Under the pieces are notes generated by a model, which did no database searches, was not told where the DNA came from, and saw only the letters and a list, made by a program, of their open reading frames with translations. A stretch of DNA of 64,000 nt. Source: Euglena gracilis. Lineage: Eukaryota. The stretch spans positions 32,961,455 through 33,025,454 of the forward strand of contig CP154954.1 in assembly GCA_039621445.1 (NCBI GenBank), given 5' to 3'. The translations under genes were made by a program, and so were the position numbers. Positions 1 through 61,310 of this stretch are shown piece after piece; the stretch's first letter is position 1, and each line of letters begins with the position of its first letter.

Positions 1-639
1 CACTGGGCACCACAAAACAGGGGGGACAGCGACAGGTACAACAGCTTCACCTGACGAGGGTTCGCCCTTGCGATACAGCGTTTCGTGTCGCACCAACTTC
101 GGCAGACGGGGGTTTCCACACGGTCGGCGGAGGTGGTAAACCGTCATTTTCAAAACGAAAAATGTCGGTTTACCCAGAAAAAAACCCGGGGGTCGAAAGC
201 AGTGGTACTAATTTTGGTACCACGGGTTCCAGCTGACGGGTGCGCCGCCCCGTCAAGTGATGGCGACACATTTGGTCAAAAAAGAATGTGCAGGTGCGTA
301 AAAAGCCACCAAAAATGAAAAGTGCATTCCCGGCCGTTTAAATAAACATTCCAAGACACACTTCTTAAAGGCGTCAAAGCAAAGCTTAAAATTTAATAAA
401 ATCCCACTTCTTTTGTTGCCTTGCTTTTTTTGTGTCCTTTTTGAGCAAATAAAAAGAAAACTAACCAGAAAAAAGTTCAGAAATGGGAGAAAATAAAATA
501 ATAATAAAATAATAAAATATAAATAAACGGGAACAAATGAAATATAAATACATCTGTTCAAACCTTCAAAAGTTAAACTACCGAGAAAAAAGTCGATGTC
601 GATGGGGGGGGCAGGCACCCAGGAAAGCGAGGGGCACAC

Positions 640-26164
<25,525 letters not shown>

Positions 26165-27459: not shown

Positions 27460-27814
27460 TCACTCGTGCCAGTAGGGGTACACCTGAAACTGAGTGTACA
27501 GCGCCCGCATCGTACCGTCCGGCCCCGGTTTGTCATAATGCAGGCGATAAAAGCAGGGGTCGCAGAAGAACGTCTCCGCCAGGGGGCCCTCGCTTCCATT
27601 ACCCAACATCTGGCACCCGCCCAACATCAATATGCCGATCAGCATGACAGCCCAACACCCCAAATGGCCCTATTGGGCAGGGGGACCGACGGTCCACTTT
27701 AAAGCTTGATATTATATATATAATATATATATTACATTTAAAGATATATATATATATTATAATAATATATAAAGATATATATATTTATTATATATATTTA
27801 TTATATATATTTAT

Positions 27815-27903
<89 letters not shown>

Positions 27904-30900
27904 AAGCTTGATGGGGCCGCCAGGCACTCATATCTGCTGCTTGCACGACCACCACGGCCAAAATGAAATGTACACCGGGGTTTGAGGAATAAAACGTTTG
28001 GTAGCTGGCTCGTTTGCAGACGTGGCAGGGCAGGAAGAGAGACCTGCAACAGCTGCAGTTCAACTCTACGAGGTTTTCTGACTCTGCACTCCCCCTCCCG
28101 GAGGCCCCCAGTCAGGCATTTCTTTTAAAGCGCCGTAAAAATCCTCAAAAAACCTTTAAAAACCTTAAAAATCCCCAAAAAATCTTCCAGGAAAAAATTT
28201 CAAATCTCGAGCAAGAAAAAAGAAGTCGCAAAATCTCGGCAAAAACAAGTCAACTCTGGGGGGGGGGGGATGATTTCTGGATTTTCAGGGCATCGCTGGA
28301 ACATTGTCCATCCACTCAAAACTTGAAACAATGGGTTTGTTCTGACTTTTTGATTTTCGATTTTGACCGACATTAGATGCCTGGATGGCTCTTTGACTGC
28401 CCTTGGAAAACAGATGCATTAAAACATTAAAATGCCTTAAAAAACTTTTATAAACCCTATTTTTTGAAAATTTCGCCTTAAAAATAAAAGTCAATAAATA
28501 AATGAATAAATATATAGAGAGATAAATAGATAGATAGATAAATAAATAAATAACCCCCCCCTAATAGATGCACGGGGCCGCTACAAGCCCAGGGTCCAAA
28601 TAGAAGCGCACCCCCCGCCGCCAAAGGCGGCGGTCCGCTACAAGCGCACCCCCTATTTTGATGGGATTTCTAAAGGAAATCAACAAAAATCGAGAAGGTA
28701 GGGTCCAAATAGAAGCGCACCCCCCCGCCGCCGGAGGCGGCAGTCCCCTATAAGCGCACCCGTGCTTCTATTAGGAGGGGGGGTTTAATACTAATACTAA
28801 TACTAACACTAATACTAATACTAATACTAATACTAATACTAATACGAATACAAATACGAATACTAATACCAATACTAATACCCCCCCCCTATGTCCAATG
28901 ACCGGTAACCTCTGTCCTCTGACCGGGGGGGGGTGGTCGTTGGACATAGGGTAGTGACCAAAAAGGTGTCCTCTGACCGGGGGGGGGGTGGTCGTTGGAC
29001 ATGGGGTCAAAAGAAAGTTGGTGGGTACCCGGGTCCCTACCCACCCAAAAATGCCCAAATTTTCCCTTTCGGCGCTTTGCGCCGAAAATTTTGGGCAATT
29101 TTGACAAATTTTTGTCCAAAAAGTGTCAAAAATGGCATTTTGGCCAAATTTTTGGCCAATTTTTGGGCAAAATTTTTGACCAAAAATTTGGTCAAACCTC
29201 CGAAAAGGACACGCTTTGGCAGACACACACCGCCTGCAGTGGGTACGATACCAGTGGATGCAGAGGAGTCCCTGGCCGGGCTGTCCACACACAGCTGGTC
29301 GTTGTACGTCACCTTCTTCGCGTTGCGGACGTCGCACACGCCGCACCGCCGCACCCGCGGCTTGAGGCAGAACACGCGGTCCGGGTACGTCGAGCGGCGG
29401 GTGGCGTCCCGCCTGCCGGCTGCTGCCCTCATGCCTCTCACGGGGGGGGGGGGATTGATATCGATGGCCTTCAGGAAAATTGAGAAAAAATCGCGGAAAA
29501 TTGCGAAAAAAATCGCGGAAATTGCAGAAAAATTGCGGAAAATTGCAGAAAAATTGCGGAAAAATTGCGGATATCAATCCCCCCCCCCTGCACCTCTGCC
29601 TGCCGGCGCTGCTGATGCCGCCGTTTCTGCCTGAACAGAATTCTTTTGGAGTGGACAATCGCTTCTGCTGGTGGCTTGATGGGGGATAAAATGCATGCGG
29701 ACAGGCCCCCTCCGAATCAGAAAAGGCGGGATTTGGTACTTCCACACATTTCTTGGTCGGCGTTGTAAATTCCAGGAAACCAACAGGAGGGCGTGGGAGG
29801 AGGGAGGAAATGATTTCCACAGCCACGGGCTGGCAGGGGGGCAGCAGGGCGGGGTGCAGCAGGCGGACTGCAGTGAACACGACGTAGTGCGCACAGCCGC
29901 CGGCGTGGACGTAGAAGTATCGCTCCCCGAGCCGGACACGGGGCGGCCGTGGAGACAAACGTCGGGTTAACCCCCAGCTGTGACGGGACGACTCCCTTCG
30001 TGTTCCCGATGCCCAAACACCAACGTGAACAACGTGAAAAACGGATGCATGGTGGTGTAATATGATGGAAGCGCATGACCGCCACAAACGGTGCAATCAG
30101 TGGGATCGGAAAGAACGGGGCAAAGAAAATTCTGTTGGAGGGCGGGGGACACAATCCGACGGCCGCGGTGGACAACTGATTGAAGGTGACGTCCTGCATG
30201 GAGAGCGTCGGGAACGGCTCCTTCCGCGCGGAATCCTTGTTTGGGAACCACTGGAAAGACTGGATGAGCTGCGAGTAGTCACTGCTGCCTGGGGCGAGAC
30301 AGCAAGGGGCAGGCAGGGCGGCGCTGGATGACCCTTTCAGAGACTGGGGCGGCTGGACCAGCCCCCGGGCTGTCGGATGGCGTAGGCGAAAAAAATTGCA
30401 ACGGTACGAACCTACTGTGCTGGTACCAAACTGCAACACAATTCTCTCTGAATGCAGAGCCGGGACCTAATGGAATCCATTCATTATGGGACAGTAACAC
30501 AAGAGGGGACAACATCACCGACAGAGGAACTTGGTGTGGGAAAAAATGAGTCTCACACCTTCCATGGACATGTCGCTGTAAAACGCGTTGTTGATGAAAA
30601 AGCACGCTGACCGTTGGCACGCCTCGGACACCTTGCTGTTGGGGTCTGGCCCTGGCACACAGTGGAGAGGGTCCGGCCGCAGGCCGTGCAACAGTGGGTC
30701 TGCTGGAAGGTCGTGTGGCTGGCCCTCAGCCACACAACATACGTGGGTAGCACATGTACTTTGCTTAAGCTGAGACAAAATAAAAATGCTGTGCGATACG
30801 GTTTGGCACTAATATCTGATTCTTCCAGATACAACGTTGTTTAACGACCACCCTCTTGGGGGGTCCAAATAAATCAGAGGCTGGAAAATTTGGGGAGGCT

Positions 30901-33900
30901 GGAAAAGGGCTGCGGGTTGACCCTTAATGGGGCCACCCCCGGCTGGAATGGGTGTAAACTGCAAAAATCCCCCCCCCAAAAAGCTGTCAGTTATGTAAAA
31001 AAAATCGATTTTTTTGACCCCAAATTTGCCCTGGCCAGCCCAAATTCGACCATTTTAGGCAATTTGTACCTCTGAAGGCAAAGCGATCTGTTACCATCCA
31101 GCCGGCAGGACAATAAACATAACATAATAAAACTCGTCGTTTGGGTGGAATTCCAAGGCTAGAATTAGGCTGCTGGCTGGCTGGGCCCCCATGGATGCTG
31201 GGCCCCACAGGCCTGACTGATGCCCTGGTTCCAGAATCTCACGCTGTGCATATGGTCTGGAACTTTTCTTCCCTAAAGTGATGTCCCAAATTGGACGACC
31301 AAAAATTTCACAGTTGGGAGGAAATCATCCAAATATCATCATATCAGCGCTTGCTGCATTTGTTTCATTTTGGCTACTGTTTGAGTTTTGGAACAGGACG
31401 GTCTCCCATATCGGACAGAGCACAAAGACCCGTTGTCTGATTCAGGTTCCAAATTGGGAGTCATTGCAATGCTGTGATATGCCACAGAGCATGTTTTTTT
31501 GAGCTATTGCATTATGTCACATTCATGACACTGACACAATAACGTCCCGGAAGTGGAGACCGGCCCTGCCGCACATTGACGTGCAAGTCCCCCCCCCCCC
31601 GGAATGTGCCGGCCCGGGCGGTGACGCAGTAGATCGCCCGCCGCAGGGCCAGCAGGGGCTGGGAGCCGAGCACCTTGAACGCCTCCTGCCGCGAGGACCG
31701 CGTCGGGTGGTACACCTCCACCTCCACCACCACCTCTGTGGGGGCCCTGCCCCGGCCTGTGCAACTGACAGACCCCCCCTCCCAATTGGCAGGACAGTGA
31801 CGCCTCTTCCACCATTTGCAAACATTCCCCGCCGGGGCAACAATTGGGGAGGCTCTCCAGCCCACTCAAACACATGCCTTTTTCTCGAACGCACAAAAAT
31901 GAGCTCCCAATGAACATCCCCCAAACGCACCATGAAAAAAACAATAAACCCCCATCTCCATCCCCTGGCTTGGATTTGGCAGGATTTTAAGACCCTTGGG
32001 GTGAACGTTTGAATGACCCCCTTTGGGTTTTTGTGCCCTGATTTGAGGTCGATTGCCATCTACCATTCTAGGTTTTCAGTGTGCACCTTTCAGTTTTTCC
32101 CACCATGTGTATCCCCTGAAAAAGCTTCTTTCCAATGACGTTCGCATTTCCAGGGCAGGTAGGGGTCAGACTGGAGCCCCCCCAGCAGGTGGAGGAATGG
32201 AACCGCCCTCTGATCCTAGGAAGGGGAAGGAATACCACTCCACCTAAACCTGTACACCCTCCTTATATCGAACCCCGTGCTATGGGCAGGAAGGGGGCGG
32301 GCATTTTCAACCCCCCCGGAGGGGGTCGGGTTTCAGAGTGTGTTGCCCCCCCCCCCCTACGCCAAAGGCGCTGGGAACCTGAAAATGGCCATTTTCAGGG
32401 GAAATGGCTTGGTCGGCAGGCACCGGAAGCCCGGGAGTGGAATATCCCCTCCAGCCCTCTTGTCTGACACCAAACCCTGGCTGAGACCCCTTCGAGTTTG
32501 AAATGCGGCACCTGCAAGGTATGTGCATGGCATTTCCCATCCACCCACCCACTGGATCCCAGAAAATTTGGAATGCTGACTTTTAGTTGCCTGAGCCTCC
32601 ACGGAGGCTCCACAGAAGAGTGATTACCCGGATCCTCCGTGGAGACTCCCCGAAATCTCCGCTGGTTTCCTCCTGGAGCCTCCTCGTCGATAACCAAATC
32701 TGTGCAAAGACCGAAAAAAATTTCCGAGTTCACCCCCACACCCCCCCTACTGCTGATGATGATGAAATCGAAAATAACAAATAGAAGGATTAAATTTTTT
32801 TCGGTTTTAGCCCCCTCCCCCACACCCCTTACACCCCCCCGACAATTTGCTTCTGATGATGAAAACAAAAATTGCCAAAAGAACAGAAAATTTTGTTTTG
32901 ACCCCCACTGGCAATTATGATGATGATGAAATGGAAAATGCCAGAAAATAATGAATGTTTTTTCGTTTTACCCCTCCAACACCTCGCTGATGATGGTGCG
33001 AACTGAAAAAAATGCGTTGTCCGCCACTTTGTCCACACTGTCCACCTGCCCGCTAAAACCAACCACCCCCCCCCCCCCCGGGCGGGAGCACAAGGCACCC
33101 CTCGGTAAAAAGAAGCTGATCCCCCGTCCCTATTCAATCCAAATGCACATACTAACAGTTGGGGCTCAATGTTACAACCCTGGAGGGGTTTATTGTATGT
33201 CCCCCACCCCCCACCCCCCGGCAGGGCAGGGGGAGGCGGGCAGCGGCTCCTCGTCCTCCTCCGCCTTCACCACCGGCCGGCCGTGGGCCACTGCCACATT
33301 GAGGTTGCCGTCCCGCTTGGGCAGCGCCTTGGTGTTGAGCTGCTGGCCCCAGGGCCGGGCCAAGGGGCCGAGAAGCAACAGCAACTTCCCGCCCAAAACT
33401 CACGGGTCTGCCGGGACGTCAGGCGGGAGGGGAGGAATCGACATTGAAGGCTTTCAAAAAAATCGTGGAAAATACCGGAGTGTTGATGGAGGGGACCTAG
33501 AACCTCCAGATATTTTCATTGTGAAACATTGGTGTAGGTTTGAACCGTCCTTCGCATTTGTTTTTGAACAAAAAACCCCCAAAACATGATTTTTGTAATT
33601 TGGGAACAAACTGATCCCCTGGCCCTAAAACTATGGAATTTTTTTTGGCCCCCCCAAAACCCTAAAAATGTCAAATATGCCAAAAAATTGACAGAAAAAA
33701 TGGTGCTGCGGAAAAAACTTGGTCCAATATGCAAAATTCTTTGAAGTTTAAACCTCGCAGCAGAAGTCAAATTTAATAAAAACCAAAACCCAAAAGTACC
33801 CAAAAGCCAAAGGTTAATATTGAAAGCACCACCTCCCGCCGCGGGGGGGGGGGTAGAAGGCTGCCATTTCGATTTTTTCCCCATTTGTCCCCTTTTCGTC

Positions 33901-36900
33901 CACATCAGGCCATTGCTTGAGGACCGGGGGGGGGTCCACTGGCTGGCCATTTTGTTAGACACTGGAAAAATGGACGAGCTAGACCCCCCTGGGGGGTCCT
34001 GGGGGGTCCCCCGACCGGAAAGAAGTTTTCCTCCGGCGCTGTGTGCTGAGGCGGAAATGAGTTCCCAAAAAACTTTTGGCACTTTGCGCCAGTCACTGAA
34101 AAAAAATTTCCACTAGTCAGCCCTCTGGTCCACCAGAATTCCCGCCAGCCAAATTTGGCCAAGCTACACTCCAGCCAGTACTGCAAACCCTCGAGCAAAG
34201 GCCTGGTCCACATCCACTTGATTCCTGCATCCTGAAATGAGCCCCAGCCATTCTCCAAATGGTTTTCATAGCAGGGGGGCGGGTGGTTGGTAATTTCTTT
34301 TTTTCATTTTTGTTGCATTTGCTTTTGGCGAGGGTTTTCGGTGCTAGTTTTTTGGGGGGGGGCTTAGCCATGCAGCCCCCCCCCCCCCTTCCCCAGGCAC
34401 ACAGCCGTCATCCGTAGCATGAGGGCGCCGAGTCCTGTTCGGCCGGCGGGCTGCAGGGAGAGGAGCGGCGAGGGGTGGTCCCGGCCATGGCGGCACTCGG
34501 CAGCCCCCTCCCCGAAGCAGGGCGGTCCTTAAGCAAAAAAAAAAAAAATCCCGTCCCGGCACAGCCGAGAAATTTTTTTGAAAATCCATGACCGAAAAGT
34601 GGCCGTATTTTGCCCGAAACGGGTCGACTTCGGGAAAAAAAGTGATTCCTGGCACTTTTGGAACATCGCCCATCCGCCCATAGCGTCAAAAATTGCGTTT
34701 TTCGACTTTTTGGTTTTCGACCCCCGTTCAAGTCCCGGTGATCCTTGGTCGGGGGGGCGGTCCTTAAGGGGCGGTCCTTAACGAAAAAAAAAAAAACTTC
34801 CCGTCCCTTATGGACCGCCCTGCCCCGAAGCACAAGGGGTTCTGACACAACGCAAAGGCAATCCACCCGCCAAGGGTGCTTCGTCCGTTCCGCCCCCTCC
34901 CGCCTGCCCAGCTGGGACCCAATCCCTCTGAGAGCGAGAGGGCCGGGAACCACCGCCGGGGAACCCGAGGGCCATCAGGGCCGGGGGAGCCGTACACCTC
35001 CTGCTCCACAGAGCGGTAGGTGGGCACCGTCTCCGGGGGAATTGGCTGCAGGACCTTTCCAAAAGAGGATTTGCAGGAAGATAGGCTCCATCGGTGTGGT
35101 TCGACTACCCCCCCCCCAATACCCCAAAGGCCCTCCCTGGACAATTGAGCAAAAATCACCCGCCCAAATAGACCCCAAATTTAACCCCCCCCCCCTGACC
35201 GTGGATGGAACCTTCCTTAAAAATTACTGAACATCGCTTTCAGACATAAAACACGACAAAAACGCTGATACTTTCGGCGTTTCAAGACCCCCCCCCAAAA
35301 TCATATGGCATTTCTGCGTTCAACTGTAAACAGATTCTGCGAAGCACCGAAGGATGACCTTTTGTTTTTTTTTGGGTCCCAAAATGATGCTTTTTTGCGG
35401 CTGGGCTGGTCAAGCAAAGCTCGTTCCTGAAACGTATGCCGATGGGCGGCAGAACGTATGCCATTCGGAGCCGATGGGCGGCAGAAATGGCACGCCATTC
35501 TGGACCTAGACAGGGCCCACTGCGTCATACTCACCCATTTGCACACGGACGGTGGGCGGGAGGCCACGCCCTGGCCATGGCGTCCATACAGGACCGCGCC
35601 GCGCCGTAGTCCGGGTGCCGCTTCGCCTGTGCCTGCAGCTCCAGCAGGCGGCGGTGCAGGCGCTCGAAAGGCGTCACGCACTGCAGGCCCTCCAGGCTGC
35701 CGCCAGGCCGCGGCCCTGGCTGCCCGTTTTGGGGGGTACGGGTTGACAGAAGACCAGGTGGGGGGGGGGGCGAACCCCATGGGCTCTATCTCTGTGTCTG
35801 GACCTGGGGGGTCCCCCGTCAGGGCAGAACCAAACAGGGGGTGATCGGGGCAGAGTCCATCCTTTTTACAGCCGACAGACACAATTGTTGGAACCGGCCG
35901 GACATTTTGGTGACCCCCGCCGGGCAGGAAATGGGAGAATAGAGGACACTTCTATAGGGCCCCCGGGGACATGAATAGTTGACCCTCTGACCCATGAAAT
36001 TTAGGCCCTGGTGGACAATTTTGCAGGGAAACCTGTTTGAAACAATCTGATCCAAGGAACTTAAAATTTGACAGAAGATGCTGACGTTCAAATGGAATTG
36101 ATGGGAAAGTCTTCAAGAGTCTGCATATTGGTCGTACAAGATGACTTCGCATCTTCCACCCAAAAGGTGGGACAAAGGTAGCTCTCAAAGTTTCACAAAT
36201 GTGGGAGGTGAAAGAATCATCCAACGACTGCTCCAAAGCTGTTCCGCAAGTGTTTCACATTGGAATGCCATACATTCACACAAATGGCCACAATTCACAT
36301 TAAAATTTTCTCTGACAGCAACTCTAGGGTATCAACCTCTTCTCAAAGTCTTCCCAAAGCAACATCTTGTGTTCACATTGGACCAGAAAAAAAAACAGCT
36401 TTCTGATCACTGCGCATAATGCAAAGCCAGAGGCACCAGTGAATGTGTCGGGACGCACTGCTTTTTCAAAAACATTTTGGGGCTCTGCAGTCACCTTCAA
36501 AAAAATTCAGTGAAAAATAATAAAAAAAACAACAAAAGGGGTTTGGGGCTTTTTATGATTTTTTTTTAAAAAAAACAAAAAAAAAACGCCAGCTGTGGAA
36601 CCAGACAGGGGGGGGGCGGACATCCCCAATCCTATGTGCCAAACTAAACCTGTCCACCTAAAAAACCATAAAAATGAATTTTTAAACTTTTCAAGAAACC
36701 TTACCAACGTGTCACAAATGATTTCCCAATGTTCAGAAAAAAGCTGCGTGGTTGATCTGGGACACAAAATCGATAATATCATCTGGGTTTGATGGATCAC
36801 AGATCATCCCAGTTGACGAACGTGCAGTATTGAAAATGGCCTTTTTCTTTTTGATAATATTAGATGTGGCCCGGATGGCATTTCCCCCTCCCCCTCATTG

Positions 36901-39900
36901 GCCAAAAAAGGGGTGCAGCCCGCCAAGAGGTGGTGTTAATACCACCAATTTACCCTTAAAATGTTTATGCATCGAACCTCACAACCCAATGGTGAATAAG
37001 AAGTTCGTGGAGGTCTCGTCTGCTCCTTGTAGTCTTTTCCGTCCACCCAGAAAAACGTCACCAGTCTCACACAGAAGTGCCCACGGGAGCTCAACAAGAA
37101 TGTCTATGGGGGTCTACGGGTCACGTCCGTGGCTGCCTAAGCGGGCATGCGGGTGCCCTGCCACGTGCCAGCCACCCGGGCCATGGCCTGGGGGAGGTCC
37201 ACAGGGGCCGCCATCAGGGCCGCCACCGTCGGGTCCTGCTCGTCCCCAGGGCTGTATGGGAAGGCCTGGTGGGGGGTCAGATCCCCCCCTGACCTGACCC
37301 CTGGCACCTGCTCAAAGAAAATTCCTTCGGCGCTGCCGGAAATACAGCAATTTTTGAGGGGGTCGGACCCCCCCACCCACCACCAAGCACCTATAGTTGG
37401 CACCCCGATTTTTGCCATTTTCGGCCATTTTCGGCCATTTTCGGCCATTTTCGCCCATTTTCGGCCATTTTCGGCCATTTTCGGCCATTTTCGGCCATTT
37501 TTTCCTATTGGTGGGGGGTAAAATTACCTTAAAATCCTTTCACACCAACAATGCATTTGATCATTCATACAACGTGAAAATAGTTGTGAGCAACAAATCA
37601 AGCCAACACATCCAAAAAGGTCCGTTTGGAATGGGTGCTCAGGGATTAAAGAGGTCAAAAAAATTGGTTGCAATATCGTGAAAAATCTAAATGGCACAAA
37701 TCCATCACTTCAAAGAAGCCTTGATGTTAAATTTCATCTGTCATGATGAGATGATCATCCGTCTGGATGTGGCGAAGTTGGAAGAAAATGCACTCGGCTT
37801 GAGCTCAGAGCAAAAGCAAGCAAACATGTGATCAGCACATAATGTTGAAATATTGACATCAAATGCGCTCACCCAATTGCCCAATTTCTGCAGCATATAC
37901 ATCTTGTCCAGCATCTGCATCTTGTTCAGTATCTGCATCCATTTTTTCTGTTGGAGAGGACCGAGGGAATGGGAGGGCAGGGAGGAGGGGAGGAGAGGGA
38001 GGGCACCTGGCTGGGTTTGGGGAGAGGCTCCACACGGGATGCTCGCCCACCCGCAACCGGCCGGGCCTGCGGGGCTCGGGATACCAGCCCGAATGAGCCA
38101 GGGTTCGGGACACCTGTTGCTCCGCGCGGCATGAGCCTCCTTGTTGGCGTTGTTGGCGTTGCTTGGGCTGCCCCAGCTGCTACGATGATGACGATGGTGG
38201 CGCTGTGGCGGCAACTACACCGCCTCCGCGTAAGTTGGGGGCGAGGGCGATGAGCTGGTGGGGTGTATGTGGGCGGGAGGCGGACTGCTTGGCTCCCTCT
38301 GCCGCGATGAACGACTCCGCCGCCGGCAGTTTGGACCCTCAGATGGGTCCCGAGAATGGCGTTGATGTCCTTGCTCGGGATCAGCAGCTGCATAGATGGT
38401 CAGCCGCAAGCCGTCGAGCTGCTCCTGAATGATGTGTAGAGTGTCGAGCAGCGTGTGTAGGGAGGGGGTGGTTGGAGAAGGGAGAAGAGGGGCAGAGGGT
38501 GCGCTGCGCACTCCCAGTGCAGGAGGATCTAATGGGTTTCATGGCTTCGGGTTTCGGGCTTCAGGTCCTTGGTCTTCTTGGGGTGGGGCAACCGAGAGAG
38601 CGAGGGGCGGTGGGGCCCCGGAGAGCTGTGGGGGTGGTTGCCAGTCCAGGGGCAGGGAATGTGGGCCCGGGAGTGGGAGTGGGACTGGGAAGAGGACCGA
38701 CCGGGAACGCAGCGGACTTAAATGCGGGCTCCGACAGGTGGTAATCCATTGCATCTTGTCCAGTATCTGCAACCATTGCATCTTGTCCAGTATCCCCATT
38801 CGATTCGTCTTGTCCAATATTTGTGTCTTGCCTAATGTCTTCATCCATTGGCTCCCAACCTACCGCAAAAACCCAAAAAAATGACCACAAAAAGCCCAGA
38901 ATTGTCCACAAAAAGTCCCCAAAAGCACACAAAATGACCTAAAATGGCTTGAAATAACCAAAAATTGCCCAAAAACGCCAACAATGTCCACAAAAAAAAG
39001 TGAAAAATAACACAAATCACCAAAATGGCGCAAAATAGCCGGAAATGTCATAAAATGAGCTCATATTGACCCAAATTAGCACAATATTTGCCAAATCAGT
39101 GCAAAATACCCCAAAATCAGCAAAAATTGATCCAAAAATGGCCAAAATGGGCGTAATACTGGAGATTTGTGGAGAAATTATCCCAAAAATGGGGTTTATT
39201 CTTCAAAAAATACAAAAAAATGCCAGCATCGCCCTTGTCACCAAAATTTTCTGAAATGTCATCAAAGCCCAAATAACCTTTTCGGAGGTGGTTCTTTGAG
39301 CAGCATGTGTTGCAGTGCCAGGCATGATGGCAGGAGAACAGAGGCTGCACAGAGACAAGAATCAGTCGTACTAGAAATCGCCCCTCAGGCGTTGGGCAAA
39401 GTTGTTGGGCAAAAAAAACTCGAAAATTTTTGCAATGATTTTTTCTCATTTTCGGCCATTTTCGGCCATTTTCGGCCATTTTCGGCCATTTTCGGGACCC
39501 CCACCTATAGAGCCCAAAATTTCATTCTCGGCCATTTTCGGCCATTTTCGGCCATTTTCGGCCATTTTGACTCTAGGTGCTTGCCCACCACCCATAAGGT
39601 TGCGGGGATTCCCGCAGCCCTGCTCGTCCCCTTCGAACGCCGCCTTCGGGGGCCGCTCTGCAGCGCCGAACAGACTCGCCGGCAGAGCCGCTTTGAGGGC
39701 TTCCCTGCCACCTCCCACCCCAACCCACGCCAGACCGGAAAGGAGCACTGGCCACATTGACTGGGGGTGTGGGCCTGCCCCCAACTGAAAAAGCAAAAGG
39801 AAAAAACCGAAAGAAAAATGCAAAAATGCAACTGACATGTAAATTCGTCAACAGGACCCCGGGATCAGGGTGGTTCTTAAGGAAATAAAAAAGCACATTG

Positions 39901-40725
39901 AATGAAAACCCACAGGAAAATGGGCAAGCAAATTTGGCATTTTTCAGATCGACATCAGGGAAATATTGATTCTTCACATCCTTGGACATCGTCCACCCAC
40001 CCAAAACGTCAAAAAATGCATTGTTTAACCTTTTGATTTTCGACCCGTTCAAGCCCCAGTCGCCCTTTGGCCCAAAAGAGTTTAAAAAATTAAAAAAAAA
40101 ACCTTTCCAGTCCCTTAAGGACTGCCCTGCCGAGGATGCATACATTTCTGCTGGAGAGAGAGACTTTGAATTTTCACCTCCGCCAAATAATGTTTTGACG
40201 ATGCAACATTTTCATTTTGCAACACAGTGCATAATGAATAAATGCATAATCATTCGCACTTGTCCACCAAAAACACAGAAGCATGAGCAAAATAGCCTTG
40301 AATTTTTTTTAAAAATGTGAAATTTCAAAAAACATATAAAAATGACACACCAAAACCAAAATGTGGTGCATATTGCATATTTCGTCAGATCGATTGCCAA
40401 GATGCATACACTTGTACTTCATTATGCAACAACAGAAACAAAGGCAAAATTGGTGTATACTTCAGGAAGATGTCTTGAAAAAATCGCAAAAATGAATGAC
40501 GTCAAAATATACAAAAAAACCCGGAAATTTGAATGCAAACCTGCAACCTGCAACTAACCTGCAATTTCAAAAAATGTTAACTATTAAAAAAAATCTCGCC
40601 AGTTATGCAAGAACTACACTTTATGTGACTTGCACATTCCCCAGTCTCGGGAGGGCCCTGGATGGGACCTGCCCCACGGCGATGGGGCACGCCAGCTCAT
40701 CGTCCGGGATGTGGTGCTTCGTCAT
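27460..40725 (-). CDS. SNAPC3: snRNA-activating protein complex subunit 3 (SNAP50) homologue, 14 exons, ~410 aa
   Basis: Family motifs in order: VLGSQPLLALRRAIYC (31735-31620), SACFFINNAFYSD (~30648-30559), DYSQLI..MQDVTFNQLS (30288-30170), VRLGERYFYVHAGGCAHYVVFTAVRLLHP (29937-29851), YPDRVF..CGVC..KVTYND..SP (29414-29278), TFFCDPCFYRLHY..YPYWHE* (27574-27460). 5' exons: 40725-~40669, ~39705-39626, 37241-37194, 35698-35577, 35043-34998, 34450-34403, ~33342-33250, ~32699-32628. The first junction and the start codon are less certain. Confidence 0.93.
27710..27901. repeat. (TA)n tract between two copies of TTTAAAGCTTGAT; a second (TA)n tract lies at ~27065-27168
   Basis: Direct repeats at 27698-27710 and 27900-27912. 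Confidence 0.9.
28553..28784. mobile_element. TA-flanked Tc1/pogo-type MITE
   Basis: TIR (C)nTAATAGATGCACGGG / CCCGTGCTTCTATTAGGA(G)n. Four internal AAGCGCACCC motifs. Sits between AT-rich microsatellites. Confidence 0.7.
28786..28881. repeat. (TAATAC)n hexamer microsatellite
   Basis: Read directly. Confidence 0.95.
28879..29007. mobile_element. Tiny TA-flanked MITE with a duplicated right end
   Basis: CCCTATGTCCAATGACC / GGTCGTTGGACATAGGG inverted pair. TGTCCTCTGACC(G)nTGGTCGTTGGACAT occurs twice. Confidence 0.6.
29439..29590. mobile_element. Small MITE nested in SNAPC3 intron 29415-29850
   Basis: TIR (G)nATTGATATC / GATATCAAT(C)nTG. Internal GCRGAAAAATT tandem repeats. Flanks tgcctct/cacctct, 5/7. 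Confidence 0.7.
33906..34205. mobile_element. 300-bp hAT-type MITE in a SNAPC3 intron
   Basis: TIR CAGGCCATTGCTTGAGG, 15/17 match. Perfect TSD gtccacat at 33898-33905 and 34206-34213. Related copies at ~52482-52846 and ~54660-54817. Confidence 0.9.
34518..34822. mobile_element. 305-bp hAT-type MITE in a SNAPC3 intron
   Basis: TIR CAGGGCGGTCCTTAAG, 15/16 match. Perfect TSD ccccgaag at 34510-34517 and 34823-34830. Confidence 0.92.
37247..39622. mobile_element. hAT-type MITE inserted in a SNAPC3 exon; equals nonconventional intron 37242-39625
   Basis: Terminal inverted repeat (TIR) CAGGGCTG/CAGCCCTG. Perfect 8-bp TSD ctcgtccc at 37239-37246 and 39623-39630. The element is 168 bp once the nested element is removed. 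Flanking exons join in frame (FEGD|EQDP). Confidence 0.85.
37384..39583 (-). mobile_element. 2.2-kb internally deleted hAT-type transposon nested in the intron above
   Basis: TIR CAAGCACCTA(T/G)AGT, 13/14 match. Perfect 8-bp TSD cccaccac at 37376-37383 and 39584-39591. Subterminal (TTTTCGGCCA)n arrays at both ends. Decayed internal ORF. Confidence 0.88.
39866..40129. mobile_element. Older copy of the CAGGGCGGTCCTTAAG MITE family
   Basis: TIR 14/17 match. TSD cccgggat/ccgaggat, 6/8. Shares the internal core of 34518-34822. Confidence 0.8.
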
Positions 40726-40780: not shown

Positions 40781-43002
40781 CCTGTTCTCCAGTTCACCGA
40801 AGGAAGGAAGACAGCGTGCCGGACAAAAAACAACGGAAACGTTGCTGTGAGCAGGCACGACAGGCGGTTTTGGTAAGCCCCACCGTGAATGGAACGAAAA
40901 GTCGTTACCCGACTTTTCACTTGGTGGCTCACACAGGGTCGTCAAAGGGTCAAAGGGAGGCATTTTTGGGTGGCTTTTGGGTTTTCACCCCAAATTTTGA
41001 CTGAAAGTTGCCAACCCAGCTGGATTTGGGCTCTTTATTTGTGTGTACGTTCGAGATACCAGCCGGGCCCAGCTGCCAGCCGATTGGACCCCCCCTCCTG
41101 GGACGTTGGGTTCAGCCGGCATCTTTTTTTTTCTCCAGCCAGCACCTTTTATCCTTCTGTCTCGTGGGACCTCCCCCCTAAAGGGATAGATGGGAAGCCC
41201 TTCGGGTTTGAGGTGGGTGGGATGGGTCCCGACAACCCCCCTGGGGGGTAAGGTGGTGAGTCGGACCTAGTTTCAGCCAGGGCAGGGGACCCACATTTGG
41301 GGGGGGGGGCAACCTGCCTTTTTCAGCCAGCCCTGGTATTTTGAAGTTTGGGCCGGGGTTCACTGGACCCCCCTCCCCAGGGGGATCCGGACCCCCCCCC
41401 CCCCCCCCCCCTGAATGTTGGGAGGGCTCACCCCCCATCCTCGGCAGGTCCCAAAAATAGCGAAAAGTTTTCTTCCGGCGCTGCGCCAGAAAATGGGTAA
41501 AAAATTCCTTTTTTCCTCACTTTTGATTTTGAGCATATTGCTCATTATGCCAGGAGCTCACAGCCAGGCTGCGGTCTCCCTGGGTTTCTGAAATAAAGTT
41601 GGGGCCGTTTGGGGGTTGAAGCCCCAGTTTGCAAGTTTTCTGAGTGGCTTCCTCATTTCCGAGTTAGAGGTAAATGAGGTTAAGGGATAGGGTTCCCGGG
41701 CTCCGCGCGTCCAAAGTCCCCTAACGGAAAGTCAGAATTAGGAGTTAGGAGGGGAAGCAAAGTCGAATAGGGGTATTGGTCCCACTTGTATGGCACGGGG
41801 AGTTCCAACCCCCCGTCACACCACTGGGATGCCCGAGCAGTAGGCAGAGGCCGCCAAATAAATGCATAGAACAACCATACAGCGTCATTCTTCATTTTTT
41901 GAGCATTTTCGCCACTGGAGAATATTGGGGTGCATGAACCCTTTCGTCGGTGCAAGAACAGTTTGGAACCTTTGTTGGCTGAATAACTCGGGTCTGGCAG
42001 GAAGCTGCGAGTAAAAAAGAGGTGCTGCAGAAAGCCAAGATCCAGTAGCTAATCATTTAAAAAAAACTTGAAATTCCGGAAGCAGGGCTGGACCATGATG
42101 ATAATTTGCAGTACTCATTGCCTGTCCCAACTCGGGGGGGGGGGGGGGGGGACACCCCCTTTTCCCCAGTTGGATGGAGGTTAGAGGCAGAGGCAGAGGC
42201 GCTTTTTACCTTCATTGGGAAAGTATAAGGGGGAGCACGTCCAGCTGTGCGACTCACAGGGAAATGGGATGAGCCCTGTGCTGTGTCAACCAGCGTCGAC
42301 CAGGGAGGTTCAAGCATGGAACTGCTTGGAATGTTTTGTAATGAAAATGGTTAAACGAAACCATAGGCCCCACTTTTTGTTTGTATTGAACAAGATATAC
42401 ATTCGCCTTTTGATTCATCTCCTGGTTGACTTCGACCAGGTACCAAAGACGCCTTCCCTTGATTATGCAATTATCGAAGTTATCGACCCAGTTCAAGAGC
42501 CCAAATTCTGTGCAAAGAGGTCATTTGTGTTCTTTGGTACATTCTTCTTGTTGCAAAGCCAGAATGAATAAAACAGCAACAATACCAATAATTGGTGTTG
42601 ATAAAAAATTTGGTTGTTTGTTCATGTACTTGACATGGGATTCAGTTCCGAGGACGATCCAGATGCCGGGATGGGACGCCGTGCCATGCAAGGCGAAGGG
42701 GGGTGATCTCCCTGAAAAGGGCCGCCTGGTTGCGGGGGGGGGGGGCGACCACACCAGCACGCAGGGGAGCTAAGACTTGGCGCCAGCACTGGCAGGGGCT
42801 CTCCCTCCCTGCGAGGGGTCCAAGGGGTGCCCGCCGCAGCTGAAAGGGAGGAGGGGACGGCCCCGTGGGGCACCGCCTGCCAGCCTGGGGGGGGGGACCG
42901 CAGTGCGACGGCAGACGGGTGGTGTGGGGCTCGTTGCGGGGGAGGGCGGATGTAGTGCGGGCGGTATTCATCGCGAGACAGGGGGGCTGTTGGGTGGAGG
43001 GG

Positions 43003-54814: not shown

Positions 54815-57800
54815 CTGATTGGGAGGTTGGGGGTGGCTGCTGCTGTTGTTGATGGGAGGGCGTCGCTGCGGGGCCGGGAGTGTCCGGCAGGCCTGCAGGC
54901 CAGCCTGCTGGAGTCAATGGGCGGAGGCCGGCCGACCGACATCGAACTGCAGTCAGTGCCGAGGGCGGGCCCAACCCCCCCCCAAGGTGCAAACTCAGCT
55001 GGGGTTGTGGTCGGGGACCAGGGTTCGGGGCTAGGAGGGTGCCACCAGGGAATTTCTTAAGCCGGAGGGTACGTACCCCCCCGGGGGGGGGGGGGTCCAG
55101 CCAGCCAGCAGCTCAAATCCAGCCAGCAGCCCAAATTCGGGCTGGGAGCCCCCCCCCCCGGGGTCGACTGAAATAAACTCGGGTCCAGCCCGGCCGGAGT
55201 CCGGGCCAGCCAGCCGAAGGCCGGGCCAGCCGGCCGCAGGCTGGCCAGCCAACTGGGCTGCCCAGCTCACCTATCCCTGCATTTTTTCCCCTCACCACAG
55301 TTTCCTCCATCACAGCCCCCAGCCTTGATCTAGCTCCATCCACCAAAATGTCGAAACTGGCAAAAATGTGTTGGAAAATTTTGTTTTTCTCCGACCCAGC
55401 CCAGCCCAGCCCAGCCCCCTCCAGCCCCGGACCCCCCCTCCCCCCACCCCGGGGGGGGGGTCCAGCCAGCAGCTCAAATCCAGCCAGCAGCCTTTTTGCC
55501 AGCTGGAGGCTGGACCCCCCCGGGGGGTCCTTAAGAAATTCCCTGGGTGCCACGGCTTTAGGTAGTGGATCTACCCCCTCCTTGGCCGCCCCACCAGCCA
55601 AGGTGTCTGGACCGATCCCAGGGAGGTAGTCAGACCCTCAATTTTCAGCTTCCGGCGCTTTACACCGAATTTTTTTGGCTATTTTGACGAATTTTGCCCA
55701 AAACCTGCCCAAAATTGCAGTTTGGGTCCATATAGGGGGATTTTTCAGCCCGACGCCCAAAATCCTTCATTTTGACCACGCCACTGTTTAGGTCCCCTGT
55801 GGGGGGTTTGACCCCATCCACCTGCCAGGGTTGGTGACGGCTGGCTGGTGTTCCGTACTCCACTCCACCTTCTGTCTACCCACAGCCAAAAAAAAAAACA
55901 CTGCCACACATCCATGTCCAGCATGTGCCATCGTTGTGCACAACATGGCGTCGGGGGTCGGCCTCGGATGGCCCGCCCTCTGCCCGTCCTCCGCCAGCCG
56001 CAGCCTCGGCGAGCGTTCCCGCACGTTCGGCGCGCTCGGGTCGTCGCGGGAGGAGGCGGCCGGCGGGCCGCGGACGGGCTCCGCCCCCTCCGCGCCGGGG
56101 GTGTGGGCGGACCGGGCGTCCCCGGGGGGCGGCTCCGCCCACCGCAGCCTGCCGGGCAGCTTCGGCAGCACCGGGGACGTCCTGAATGGACCCCGTTGAC
56201 CAACTATCGGGCCGACTGTGTTTGTCACACGCGGATACACACGGCACAGGCGCACGCATGGCCTCACGTGTGCATGCAAGCACCCACATGGACACAAATG
56301 CATAATTTTTGTTTGTTTGTGCTCGTTGTTCACAAGCAAGTCAGGGTGGAGTTGCCAGGGTTGAGCAGGGATTTTTTTTTTTGCAGAGAGGCAGAGAAGT
56401 GTGTCCCCCCTCGGGGTCAAAACCAAAACCCCTCAGTATTCAAGAACCTGAAATTCCCTTTCCAGGTACTCTTCACTTGTGGGGGCTTTGGGTTGTTGGA
56501 CAACTTTCAAAAAAAATTGGAGGTTGGCAGAGCACCTTTTTTTTTCAGCAGGTGTGCATGGAAATGTAAATTGTAACCCCAAAAAATCCCCCCCCCAAAT
56601 AATAATCCCCCCGAGGACCGATTTTGGCTTCCCAAATAATAACCCCCCGACAACCATAAAGGCAATGAAAAAAGGAGGGGAAATCAACAGAATGGTTAAA
56701 AAAGAAACACAAACATGGAGGAAATTGGTGCAGAAATTATGTTCCAAAGTTCGTCCATTTTCAAAGGAGCCCCAAAATGCCCAAAAAAAAGTCCCCTGTA
56801 TTGCCTCTTGGTGGTGCATGTTTGACTTCGAAAATTTCGCCCAAATAACGAACCCCCCCCCAAAATGATCAACCCCCCTGGACCCCAATTCCGAATGTCT
56901 AGATAATAATACGGGGGTTTATTATTTCCTTCAGTGTTTCTTTCGGTATGGGGGGGGCGGTTAGGTAGTAATTGTGTGTGTCCATAAACGAATGAGTATT
57001 TTATACCTTTTCACAAATCAAGGTTAAGCAAACATGTGTGTGCGTATGATTTCATCCATGTGAGATGGTCTCTTCATCGTTGCATTGGAGTTCTTACGCA
57101 CACGCACAGTCCCAGTTTCACGCTATGTTTTCAAGGCGGTCCCCCTCCCATCCCCTCGCTGCCATCTCCTATGCGTGCACCAGCTAAGCCCACCGCCCTC
57201 GCCCCCCTGCCCAACCGTCCACCCGTCAGCTCTTCTCCGGGGCTGCTCTGTGTCACTGTGCTTTGGCCGCAGCAAACTATCGTAGCCAAGGATGGATATT
57301 GATATTGGTTTTTGGGGAGGTCGCGATAAATTTGGATGGATTGAAGCCCCGATATCGTCGATAAAGGTTGATAAAACCGATGTGATCATTTTGTGCCCCG
57401 ATATCCTCATTTTTGTGATTTGGAGAATCCCAAAATCGCCCAAAAAAAAAGAGAGAACAAAAAAGTACGTTGCCCCCCCCAATAAAGCTGATATTTCACG
57501 ATATTTTTTCGGGACCCCATAAATTCAAGATTTTCGATAAACCCGATACGGGCCGATATCCAATATCCATCCTTGTTGTGGCCAAAAGGCAAAGCACACA
57601 CCACCATCCCCCACTGGGGGGATTACTGGGGTGGGTGGAATTGATTCAGAAAGGCAGCACCCAAAGGATGAAAGACCCTGCCTTCCTGTGAAACTTCATG
57701 TCGGCCCTTTGTTTCCTCTTTGTCCCGGCGGCTGCGGACATAGTAGTAGTACATCCCCATAGAACCCTGTCATGTGCACCAGCCGCCCCCCCATGTATTC

Positions 57801-60800
57801 CCCTCCCTCCTCTCTACCCATGGATGCCCCCCGGCAAACAGACCCACGTGTATGCGCGGGGCACTTTGGGGCCACACCGCACGTCAGCCGCCCCGGCCCC
57901 CGACCTCTCCGCCAGCCTGGCCGGCCGGCCCCTCCCCCCGTCCCCCTCCGCCGCCCCCCCGCCCCAGCCCCGCCCCGCCCCGGCCCCCGCCGGCCCCGGC
58001 CGCGCCTCCGCCGTCGCCCCGCTGGCCCGCCCCGCCCCGGGCGGCGCCGCGCCGGCCGACCCGGGCCTCGGCCTCGGGCTCGCCTCCCGCCGCCTCCACG
58101 GCGTCCACCAGCCGGGCCCCCCGCCCCCGTCGACCCAGCCACCCCCGGCCCAGCGGCCCGTTGGGGCGGCCCAGGCCGCCGCCCGGACCACTGCATTGCT
58201 CAGGATGCGTTGGACCCCCCCCCAAGGGGATGGCTGACTGGTTTTTGGGCCCCAGACCACTCGGAGTGGGTGGGGTCAGCCGAAAGTGCCCCGCGATGTA
58301 AATGAAAGCTTTTTTGACGTTGATCAGCGTGAGGTTTTGAACCAGTTTGTCTTGAGTGGCTGGAGTGATCCCCCGGTCCCCACCCGAGGGGGTTGAAAGT
58401 GGGCTGGTGAATAAACCTCCCCTGCCCACCCCCCCAGGCTGGTTATTAAGCAATGCTATGGCCCAGACCCGGCCAGACCCCAGCAAGCCCACTCCGCTGG
58501 AGGACCCCGGCGGGCTGGGCCTCATGTCTCGGCGGGCGCTGCTCTTCCCGTCCTTCCCGGACGCCCCATGTGGTTCTGCAAGGCACCCTTTGGGGATATT
58601 CCAACCTACACCTTAAGCTGAGGTTCCGTGCAGGAACCCCAGGGGCTTTGAGAACAGTCATAAAATGCCCCCCCCCCCAAAAGGACAGCCACTTTCGCAC
58701 GTGACGGCCAGGCCACGCAGTAATGGGTGTCCCCCAAAGCCATCAGACACCACTGGTGCACAGGTGGAACTTCCAAAAGTTGCCCCCCCCCCCGACCTCA
58801 AAAAAAAGGGCAGCGCCGTCCTTCGGCGGCTGGTCGGCGCCGCGGCGGGGGAGGCCCCGGCCCAGCGTCCCGCCCTACGGCCCCCCCAGGCCCGCCGCTG
58901 ACCACCCCTCTGAGTTGCACTACAGCTTCTTGTCCGTTTATGGCCGGCGCTAACTTCGCGTTTAGCCCAGTTTGTGTGGTGAGTGCTGACCCCCCCCCCC
59001 CCGGCGTGGTGGGTGGCTGGCGCCAAATACCCCTGGGGGGGCGGGGCCTCCCGTTTCTGGCTGAAGGTCCCCCCTCCACTGCACATTTCCTGAGCCCCTT
59101 CCATCGACGTCTCGTTATGAAGTCACGAATGGCAAGGGGTGGATTTCTGAACCAGCCCTCGTGGCGGGGGGGGGGGTCGGTCTTTCACATTGTCCTTGTG
59201 TTTGTTTCGTCCCCGGAGGTTTTTTTTTTTTGGTGTTCATTGGTCAGCCCCAGGTGCAGGGGGGCAGGGTAAATGCGATCATTTACAGAGCGCTGTTCAC
59301 ACCTCGCCGAAGTTATCCTGTCATGGACACTGCTCAACGTTTCATTTTTTCACTCCATCGCTTCACCACTGACCTTGAACGCCATGATGTCTGTGTCGTT
59401 TTGTTTGTTTTCGAAGTCGGTCTGGTTTTCCCTAACTGTTGTAATATTCTGTGCAATATGCATGTCAGCCCGCCTCCTGACCCCCTGACCTTTTCTGCTC
59501 TCCACTCACCACCTCACCCACCGCACCGATGCAAATGCACTATTTCCCAGTGTCATATGCATTTTCCATCCCAGAGAGAAACTAGCAAGCGCATCATCAG
59601 TGAATGCAAATCAAAGAACAGGGGGGATGGCCGAAAAAGATCTGTCCAAATAATTTTGCCCCCCCCCTTTACAAGAAAAATGTGGAAAGGGGTGCATCGT
59701 CTTGGAAAATGAGGAAGTGGAAGGACAAAGACCATGCCATGATGTTCTGTTTGTTATGTTGTCCGATGAAGTAAATCGTGTTGCAACAGCTTTCAGAAAC
59801 AAAGTGGTTCTTGAAAAAGAGTGGGTCCACCACTGGTTTTATGCTCTCAAAATAGCTTTGCAGGGGCACAGTTATTTGGGGGCACAGTTATTATTACATT
59901 CCCTGGTTGAAAGAGCAGTCAACTACTGCTCACCGTCGCATGGCAAAATGTCCCGAACCAAGAGCAACGAACCAGCAAGGGGAGGGTGACCTGGACAGGC
60001 ACCGGGAGTGCGCAATCCCACCAACAATGCGGGGATGAGAATGGTGGTCCAAACTTCGCCGTTCAGTCGATGCAGGAGGACAAGTTTGAGCCTGCCATTT
60101 GCACCAATGTACCCTTCGAACCCCGGGATCCTGGGCCAGGGCGTCGCTCAGCAACCTTCGGGGGGGGGGGGGGGGCGGTCCAGATTTCCATGAGAGGCTG
60201 GCTGGCTGGAGTTTGGGCTGGCTGGAAAAAGGCTGCTAAATGACCCTCCCCCTCTGGCCATGGCTCTGCCCGTAACCCCCCCCCATAATAAGACTCTGGA
60301 CTGATTTTTGGGTCCGTTGCTGGAAACCGCCAGGGGGGGGTCTTATTTTGGGGGGCGTCTTATTTTTAGATTTTCACCTGACCGACCCAGGCCCAAAAAA
60401 CCATAATTTTTTGGGTTCCCAAAAGCACCAAAATTTTCCTTCAGCATTTCGCACCATGTCCAAATCGGTATATTTACCATTTTTTTTTGCACTTCAAAAA
60501 TCCATCTAAAAGTGGGTTCTTCGGTATTTTTTTTCAGAAAAAGTTCCACCCTCCCCGTTTCTTTGCACCATCAGGGGGGTGTTGTTTTTTTGGGGTGCCT
60601 TGTTTTTAGGTTTTTGTTCGATCAGCCGGGGGTTACAGATCAGCCTTTGGGGGGGTTACAGGAAGGCCTGGTGGGGGAGGCTCGATCGCCCCACCACCCA
60701 CCACAGCACCTCGCAGCGAAAACCCCAGACCCCAAAGAACCATGTCGATCTAAAAATCGGCACCTTGGAAATACAGGAAGGCCTGGTGGGGAGGGTTCGA

Positions 60801-61310
60801 CCCCCCCACCCACCACTGCAGGATTCCCGTACAGCCTTTTTTCCCAGCTGGGACTGGGCCATTCTAGGGGTCGAACCGGGTGCCAAAGAATCGGAACTGC
60901 AGAAAACTCCCCAAAAAACCAGGGTCAAAAAAAGCTTCCGTCCCAGCACATTCAATGAAGAATCCACAAAACCGTCCCAAAAAAAAACACCATATTTCGA
61001 CAAAAACAGGTCGATTTCAGGGGGGAAAATGATTTCTGGATTATTGGAACATCGCCCATCCACCCAAAACGCCAAAAAAATGAGTTTTTCGACTTTAAAT
61101 TTTTTTGAACCTGTCCAAGACCCCAAAAAGTTTGCCAAAATATGGCCATTTTTTTGCAGCCATTTTTCCTGGTTTTTTCATTGAATGTGCTGGGACAGGG
61201 GGTTTTTTTATTTTTAGCACCGCCCTGTTCATGTCCATTGACATCCACTCACGTCCCAGATTTTGTTTTCCTCTCGCATGGTCCAGATGTCAGCCGCATC
61301 CACACATCCA
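54815..61310 (-). CDS. Putative multi-exon gene of unknown function (low-complexity G/A/P/R-rich exons)
   Basis: GC-rich exon-like islands at ~61310-61252 (GTGAGT donor), ~60150-59933 (GTGAGC donor), ~58900-58810, ~58570-58470, ~58200-57883, ~56182-55945, ~55630-55549 and ~55040-54815. No recognisable domain; frames are unresolved. Confidence 0.3.
55046..55545. mobile_element. 500-bp hAT-type MITE
   Basis: Perfect 16-bp TIR CAGGGAATTTCTTAAG. Perfect TSD ggtgccac at 55038-55045 and 55546-55553. Internal CAGCCAGCAGC repeats. Confidence 0.92.
57287..57575. mobile_element. MITE with a perfect 15-bp TIR CAAGGATGGATATTG
   Basis: Flanks tcgtagc/ttgtggc, 5/7. Internal CCGATA repeats. Confidence 0.75.

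Follow-up and report, generated by a model that had tools for sequence, protein, structure and literature searches.

The origin of the nonconventional introns of euglenids has been an open question since they were first described. Here we ask how one of them came to interrupt the coding sequence of SNAPC3 in Euglena gracilis, in a stretch of 64,000 nucleotides (nt) from assembly GCA_039621445.1 (contig CP154954.1, positions 32,961,455 to 33,025,454 of the forward strand), which we call the window and within which all positions below are counted. The intron in question, the second of the gene, carries terminal inverted repeats (TIRs) that directly adjoin a duplication of the surrounding coding sequence, and it probably dates from a recent event in which a non-autonomous, hAT-like transposon entered an exon, from which it is spliced out scarlessly as a nonconventional intron. 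The locus is a new and clear example of the transposon-derived nonconventional intron, a kind that earlier papers had already proposed. New here are the 13-nt extent of the direct repeat, the nesting of one insert within another, the presence of sister MITEs (miniature inverted-repeat transposable elements) in non-coding DNA, and the lack of any trace of a duplication in seven other introns of the same gene.

Two origins have been put forward in the literature. A MITE origin for euglenid nonconventional introns was proposed in 2014 by Milanowski et al., at a time when no transposable elements had been identified in euglenids (PMC3935182), and a review of 2024 equates the CAG and CTG triplets at intron positions +4 to +6 and -8 to -6 with a TIR, describing the repeats at the junctions as "TSD-like" (PMC11282704), TSD standing for target site duplication. 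The available text of these MITE-origin papers gives no duplication length and no superfamily, makes no argument from spacers of 3 and 5 nt adding up to a duplication of 8, and describes no sister elements outside genes. In 2016, Milanowski et al. ascribed intron 4 of gapC in E. agilis strain ACOI 323, a recently gained intron with 8-nt direct repeats, to the repair of a double-strand break (PMC4770533).

An insert in SNAPC3 that is absent from the message

The host gene was recognized from its downstream exons. Matches to the Pfam SNAPC3 family (PF12251) lie in collinear order on minus-strand open reading frames (ORFs), with profile positions 35-60 near 30.6 kb, 97-125 near 29.9 kb (28.1 bits, against a cut-off of 23.8) and 169-198 near 27.5 kb. 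When the 29.9-kb exon was used as a query, a single protein came back, eukprot:EG_transcript_14475, which is 384 amino acids long and 100% identical over the exon; this sequence is transcript-derived, and its attribution to Euglena gracilis is the label of its source, EukProt. The protein begins MTKHHIPDDELACPIAVGQVPSLFGAAERPPKAAFEGDEQDPTVAALMAAPVDL and matches SNAPC3 exons 1 to 3 at 100%, and its exact peptide words, together with an enumeration of split points, gave the exon map used here (Table 1). The flanks of the insertion are thus coding exons of SNAPC3, as the initial annotation of this DNA had held. No Pfam match to the SNAPC3 domain occurs in the 10 minus-strand ORFs at 37.1-45.9 kb; the conserved exons sit downstream, at 27.5-30.6 kb. 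A protein search with the 54-residue stretch that ends at the junction also gave no match; only the last 17 of these residues are exonic.

Over the insertion site, EG_transcript_14475 reads AAFEGDEQDPTVAALMAAPVDL (FEGDEQDP) without a break. Since the protein is continuous here, the mRNA lacks 2,384 nt, the length of the element and a single duplication copy together. The insert is absent from the mature mRNA and its removal is scarless at the protein level, and the earlier expectation that excision would restore FEGD/EQDP is borne out by the transcript. Exact removal leaves the SNAPC3 protein unharmed despite a transposon in its coding sequence. The sequencing data compared with the window were two runs of raw RNA reads, one run of contigs that are presumably RNA, and one DNA run. 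Position 39632 of exon 2 is covered by 6 raw RNA reads in run X21 and 15 in run X22. Among the X15 contigs, one with a depth of 175.6 is the sole one at 39632, a position 14 letters short of its end. At 35600 and 35630 there is likewise a single contig, of equal depth (175.6), whose end is 24 and 54 letters away; exon 4 ends at 35577. These two contig ends offer a hint of a short spliced contig of exons 2, 3 and 4, with which they fit.

Position 39632 is itself variable. The window has T, and C is read in 3 of the 6 X21 reads, 11 of the 15 X22 reads, and the sole contig of X15 as well as that of X1. Read on the gene strand, the variant turns GAA into GAG in the codon preceding the insertion site, is synonymous, and represents a strain or allele difference.

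The borders of the insert have the anatomy of a transposon insertion. On the minus strand, the upstream end consists of GGGACGAG at 39630-39623 followed by the TIR CAGGGCTG at 39622-39615, and the downstream end consists of the TIR CAGCCCTG at 37254-37247 followed by a second GGGACGAG at 37246-37239. Read in context, GAA G is followed by GGGACGAG and CAGGGCTG (39631-39615), and CAGCCCTG is followed by GGGACGAG and CAGGACC (37254-37232). Around the insert of 2,376 bp (37247-39622), the TIR is exact at 8 of 8 letters and the adjoining 8-bp duplication is also exact, in agreement with the pairing first reported for this site. The length assigned to the repeat has to be revised: the 8-nt copies are exact, but the full exact direct repeat, detected by a repeat finder as family D20, is 13 nt long (GGGGACGAGCAGG). 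It is made up of the 8-nt duplication with 1 nt added on the left and 4 nt on the right, and it overlaps the TIR, in that the extra G on the left is the last letter of the element and the extra CAGG on the right its first four letters. When the TIR part is subtracted from the 13-nt repeat, exactly 8 nt remain. An exact 13-nt repeat at both ends of a transcript-defined intron is not a product of chance. Beyond its eight exact letters, the TIR continues as GGGAA in an alignment that allows one indel, and a cofold of the two intron ends gives 8 perfect pairs, a small loop, and then GGGAA/UUCCC.

Because of the 13-nt repeat, the cut sites are invisible in the mRNA, and 14 placements of the cuts yield an identical message. 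The nonconventional code, 5'-N3CDG...CH'GN5-6/R, was defined by knock-in mutagenesis by Nomura et al. in 2025; its 3-nt donor spacer tolerates no change in length, and its acceptor spacer is preferably 5 nt, with 6 tolerated (PMC12501133). None of the 14 placements has GT/GC-AG borders. Only one, at 39625..37242, combines CAG at +4 to +6 and CTG at -8 to -6 with a purine as the first exon base (GAG-CAG...CTG-GGGAC/G), and at that placement SNAPC3 intron 2 conforms exactly to the code. It is from this code that we infer the exact cut sites, which coincide with the intron coordinates first proposed. Nonconventional introns are excised as full-length circles, after the conventional introns (PMC11282704).

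The following sequence of events would account for these features. A DNA transposon of 168 bp, non-autonomous and with CAGGG termini, would have entered the coding sequence of E. gracilis SNAPC3 and duplicated 8 bp of it (GGGACGAG). A second element, of 2,200 bp and with an 8-bp duplication of its own, would have joined the 168-bp element either before or after the SNAPC3 insertion, the order of insertion events being one that we infer. In the pre-mRNA, the inverted ends would pair, CAGGGCUG with CAGCCCUG, and the composite would leave as a nonconventional intron, the nonconventional splicing machinery making one cut 3 nt upstream of the CAG and the other 5 nt downstream of the CUG. As 3 and 5 add up to the 8 bp of the duplication, exactly the element and one duplicate would be lost, and the reading frame restored.

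The same borders might instead belong to an old and ordinary nonconventional intron, its direct repeat and inverted ends being due to chance or to drift constrained by splicing. In E. agilis, 84.4% of introns have short direct repeats at their flanks (PMC12501133), and base-paired ends are general among nonconventional introns. The exact 13-nt repeat of intron 2, however, lies far beyond chance, and its neighbours in the same gene look different. Seven other SNAPC3 introns fit the spacers of the code, the triplets being CAG/CTG in five, CTG/CAG in another and GCG/CGC in the last. N3 and N5 together are the eight duplicated positions that are free of coding constraint, and when they are compared with their exonic counterparts, intron 2 matches at 8 of 8, whereas the seven others match at 1, 3, 0, 4, 1, 2 and 2 of 8, or 13 of 56 in all, which is the level of chance. 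Intron 2 would therefore be either much younger than its neighbours or the sole one of such origin, and it appears to be young. The ends of its element were found in none of the 11 other SNAPC3 introns. With the nested structure of the insert and its relative elsewhere in the window, both described below, the idea of an old intron is effectively refuted.

Composite anatomy and related elements in the window

The insert is a composite. The initial annotation had described a 168-bp element with a TIR and an 8-bp duplication, and all three features hold, but what stands in the window is an insert of 2,376 bp, which is reduced to 168 bp only when an inner element is taken out. The outer part is a MITE of 168 bp and the inner part a nested element of 2,200 bp; excision of the inner element with one CCCACCAC leaves exactly 168 bp. 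On either side of the inner element, at 37376-37383 and 39584-39591, stands CCCACCAC, an 8-bp duplication that is exact. This duplication weighs less than the others because it is of low complexity, CCCACCAC occurring 24 times on both strands of the whole window. The subterminal 10-nt array of the inner element (Table 1) has sister arrays at the other end, at 39447-39495 and 39523-39568. None of the 8 ORFs inside the composite has a match to a Pfam protein domain.

The interior of the insert is clearly a high-copy repeat. In the deep DNA run, contig depth summed over 37344-39763 reaches 3x10^5 to 1x10^6, as against about 150-200 in single-copy bins, a summed contig depth not being a copy number, and position 37400 is covered by 116 contigs. 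The window also contains a relative of the outer MITE, at what we call locus E. The related motif noted initially at about 60657-60836 proved to be a diverged relative of the 168-bp element, extending over 60651-60836 and aligning with it nearly end to end. Locus E has a single CCCACCAC and no insert at the point that corresponds to the inner element's position in intron 2, so that for the inner element it acts as a paralogous empty site. Locus E also contains an 8-nt CAGCCTTT repeat, without matching inverted ends.

Contigs also vary within the inner element. Between 37925 and 38750, a jump of about 810-920 nt, from 27-nt repeat units at 37.9 kb to those at 38.75 kb, or a step back by 36-49 nt, is seen in many DNA contigs; these would represent other copies of the inner element, with the GC-rich middle missing or with a different number of repeats. 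Tandem arrays with a similar AAAAT-GC-rich unit of 10-11 nt lie in different SNAPC3 introns, at 29474-29571 and 37414-37501, and both DNA and RNA contigs connect 31041 with 37445. These repeats seem to be accompanied by a mini-satellite family that is itself dispersed.

The ends and duplication of intron 2 could be a signature of transposons in this DNA or of introns only. The window was scanned for inverted repeats no more than 6 kb apart with an exact duplication immediately adjoining them, and 20 dinucleotide shuffles were the control. Among 856 pairs of TIRs that start with CAG and are at least 7 nt long, an exact 8-nt duplication was found for 3, as against 0 in the 20 shuffles, and these three are intron 2 and two elements named MITE A and MITE C. 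When all TIRs of at least 7 nt were considered, 4 had an exact 8-nt duplication, compared with a shuffle mean of 0.55. In a further element, MITE B, the TIR has 6 exact letters and matches at 15 of 17 overall. At least 7 X15 contigs diverge just before 34518, where the upstream sequence is heterogeneous and the bin depth is 514,922, and the repeat edge of MITE A is therefore the CAG. Since MITEs A and B are intronic and no open frame runs across the site of MITE C, the signature of ends plus duplication is independent of any need for splicing. MITEs A to C are ordinary MITEs in non-coding DNA, and splicing could not have shaped their ends. A duplication length of 8 bp is common to intron 2, MITEs A, B and C and the nested inner element, and the ends of intron 2 start with CAGGG, as do those of MITEs A and C. 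These three CAGG-ended elements support the MITE reading of the initial annotation.

Partial copies of these elements, with 78-87% identity, are scattered through the window. Those of MITE A lie at 39982-40129, 61004-61096 and 28297-28360, one of them in SNAPC3 intron 1, and the first 156 bp of MITE B recur with 78% identity at 54651-54817.

Table 1. Positions of the SNAPC3 insertion, its parts and related elements in the window
Feature	Positions	Strand	Length	Characteristics or basis
SNAPC3 coding region	27460..40725	-		13 coding exons and 12 introns; ATG 40725, TGA 27462-27460
Exon 2	39626..39677	-	52 nt	ends GAA GGG GAC; protein-to-DNA mapping
Exon 3	37194..37241	-	48 nt	starts GAG CAG GAC; protein-to-DNA mapping
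Nonconventional intron 2	37242..39625	-	2,384 nt	N3 = GAG, CAG at +4..+6, CTG at -8..-6, N5 = GGGAC, first exon base G
Target site duplication, upstream copy	39623..39630	-	8 nt	GGGACGAG; 5 nt exonic, 3 nt intronic
Target site duplication, downstream copy	37239..37246	-	8 nt	GGGACGAG; 5 nt intronic, 3 nt exonic
Exact direct repeat, upstream copy	39619..39631	-	13 nt	repeat finder (D20) and slide analysis
Exact direct repeat, downstream copy	37235..37247	-	13 nt	repeat finder (D20) and slide analysis
Intron 2 composite	37247..39622		2,376 bp	TIR 8/8; duplication CTCGTCCC (+ strand)
Outer MITE, long arm	37247..37383			from TIR CAGGGCTG (+ strand) to one CCCACCAC copy
Outer MITE, short arm	39584..39622			from second CCCACCAC copy to TIR CAGCCCTG (+ strand)
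Nested inner element	37384..39583		2,200 bp	13-bp TIR (12/13) starting CAAG
Tandem array in inner element	37414..37501			10-nt unit, 8.8 copies, subterminal; repeat finder
MITE A	34518..34822		305 bp	TIR 15/16 starting CAGGGCGG; duplication CCCCGAAG; in SNAPC3 intron 5
MITE B	33906..34205		300 bp	TIR 15/17 starting CAGGCC; duplication GTCCACAT; in SNAPC3 intron 6
MITE C	55046..55545		500 bp	exact 16-bp TIR (16/16) starting CAGGGAAT; duplication GGTGCCAC
Locus E	60651..60836			diverged relative of outer 168-bp MITE; aligns over its positions 2-165

Alternative origins and transposon family

Several observations weigh against insertion of a transposon as the source of intron 2. In the sequencing data, the joint 39626/37241 is not among the 15 joints listed of a total of 736, nor are breaks at 37247 or 39622 among the 24 loose ends listed of several thousand. 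No empty site was seen for the SNAPC3 insertion, the window holds just one diverged relative of the 168-bp element, with degenerate ends, and in bins of 484 nt the depth of the outer arms is inseparable from that of neighbouring repeats. An 8-bp stem is also favoured by the structure needed for splicing, and the TIR alone is no proof of a transposon; the duplex formed end to end by the intron has an energy of -44.9, which is not better than that of shuffled sequences (-44.8 +/- 5.1). The extent of the direct repeat is a further difficulty. Given a plain 8-bp duplication, the chance of five extra repeat letters, calculated from window frequencies, is about 0.27 x 0.006-0.008, or about 0.002, and the duplications of MITEs A to C extend by 1-2 nt only, as against 5 at the SNAPC3 site. 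A coincidence, a target preference or a component of break repair are the possibilities for the 13-nt extent.

The last of these leads to a distinct explanation, in which a staggered double-strand break in the exon was filled in during repair, producing the 13-nt duplication, repetitive DNA was captured, and ends that satisfied the code survived by selection. The length of the repeat is awkward for a fixed 8-bp duplication; the captured DNA is highly repetitive; and this is the mechanism proposed for the 8-nt repeat at E. agilis gapC intron 4 (PMC4770533). We nevertheless hold it to be quite improbable for SNAPC3. The 8 nt that remain after subtraction of the TIR equal in length the duplication of the nested element and those of three MITEs independent of it, the insert has the anatomy of a MITE and a relative at 60.65-60.84 kb that aligns with it nearly end to end, and its ends start with CAGGG like those of MITEs A and C. 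A random fragment would, moreover, need 8 of 8 complementary letters over the junction of filler and duplication.

Insertion of a transposon being preferred, there remains the family to which it belongs. MITEs of the hAT superfamily have an 8-bp duplication, short TIRs that begin C/T-A-G/A, and the target consensus nTnnnnAn. The TIRs of the five elements described here are 8-17 bp long and start with CAGGG, CAGGC or CAAGC, and the consensus is matched at 6 of 10 positions over the five elements and at 1 of 2 at the SNAPC3 site. A point against this assignment is that Pfam detected a transposase domain in none of 18 ORFs (8 in the intron and 10 long ones elsewhere in the window), the sole match being a weak one to LRR_6, below the cut-off; the superfamily thus rests on duplication length and end letters. 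Taken together, the 8-bp duplication, the CA(G/A) ends and the 6 of 10 matches to nTnnnnAn point to a hAT-like family.

A transposon outside hAT, from Merlin or some other group with duplications of 8 bp, is unlikely in our estimation. It is favoured by the lack of a hAT transposase among the 18 ORFs scanned, and a second point against the hAT assignment is that two families of Merlin, in which DDE motifs are intact and the duplications 8 bp long, are reported from the draft genome of E. gracilis (PMC8101967). Merlin TIRs, according to the same source, are 24-462 bp long with a conserved terminal 5'-GG-3'. The five elements here start with CA and have TIRs of 8-17 bp, so that they differ from Merlin in both the terminal letters and the length, and moving their ends to a GG destroys the duplications. 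The hAT identity first assigned to the intron is therefore a putative one, suggested by the 8-bp duplication and by TIRs that start CA(G/A), and weakened by the 18 ORFs without a transposase and by the occurrence of Merlin elements with 8-bp duplications in this species.

Relation to known introns and the surroundings of the insertion

The earlier case for MITEs consisted of inverted ends and vague "TSD-like" repeats, and the case for break repair of one 8-nt repeat; the SNAPC3 locus unites a full MITE anatomy, a scarless transcript, and non-coding sisters that share its end letters and the length of its duplication. In the available text on E. agilis gapC intron 4, neither an element family nor a TIR family is shown, and there are no copies outside genes (PMC4770533). 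SNAPC3 intron 2 differs from it in its 13-nt repeat and its nested MITE with a relative elsewhere, and also in that no insert-free strain is known. Outside the euglenids, the introners of Micromonas and other algae and the MITE-derived non-canonical introns of Fritillaria and Amoebophrya are likewise DNA transposons with a TIR and a duplication that have turned into introns, and they too use part of the duplication and are spliced scarlessly, as at SNAPC3 (PMC11282704). Those introns are spliceosomal, have duplications of 3-5 nt and form large, near-identical families (PMC11282704), whereas SNAPC3 intron 2 follows the euglenid nonconventional code and has a duplication of 8 nt. In the main texts of the literature, as distinct from its figures and supplements, we found no paper that links the spacers of 3 and 5 nt to an 8-bp duplication or to hAT, and none on CAG-ended MITEs with 8-bp duplications in Euglena.

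A broader proposal can be made, which we advance tentatively and as a possibility rather than an expectation. The 3-nt and 5-nt spacers of the code may be the image, at the RNA level, of the 8-bp duplication made by CAG-ended (hAT-like) transposons; insertions of this type would be removed scarlessly in either orientation, and most nonconventional introns may have begun in this way, their duplications having since been lost by drift. The seven older introns of SNAPC3 may, on the same reasoning, have lost theirs by drift. The wider value of the idea lies in its testable arithmetic, spacers of 3 and 5 nt adding up to a duplication of 8, which can be applied genome-wide to "slidable" introns. Introns of this class, with flanking direct repeats, make up 84.4% and were set aside in the study that defined the code, which discusses MITEs as a source (PMC12501133); the terms TSD and target site duplication are absent from its main text. 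The introns set aside are those in which duplications would show.

The remaining introns of SNAPC3 are of several types. Intron 10 (29938-30169) has 3-nt and 5-nt spacers, the triplets GCG/CGC, of which GCG falls outside the published CDG rule, and a perfect stem of 8 bp. Intron 11 (29415-29850) has the same spacers, with CTG/CAG triplets and a 9-bp stem. Introns 5 (34480-34983), 7 (31740-33236) and 8 (30641-31621) do not have GT/GC-AG borders and, judged by eye, do not fit the triplets at +4 to +6 and -8 to -6; in intron 7, a CAG at -8 to -6 pairs with a CTG at +8 to +10. Intron 9 (30288-30557) is the only conventional GT-AG intron of the 12, and has a pyrimidine-rich tract before its AG.

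On a larger scale, an inverted duplication of 3.4 kb with 95.6% identity, at 1-3393 and 44935-48337, brackets about 41.5 kb that include SNAPC3. RNA reads pile up at 41391-41412 and 42133-42152, with about 40 per strand class as compared with 1-8 elsewhere. A joint of the opposite-strands type between 41411 and 42151 is supported by 550 reads in X21 and 209 in X22, the loose ends here are runs of C or G, and this pile-up may reflect a hairpin of an inverted repeat or an artefact of the libraries.

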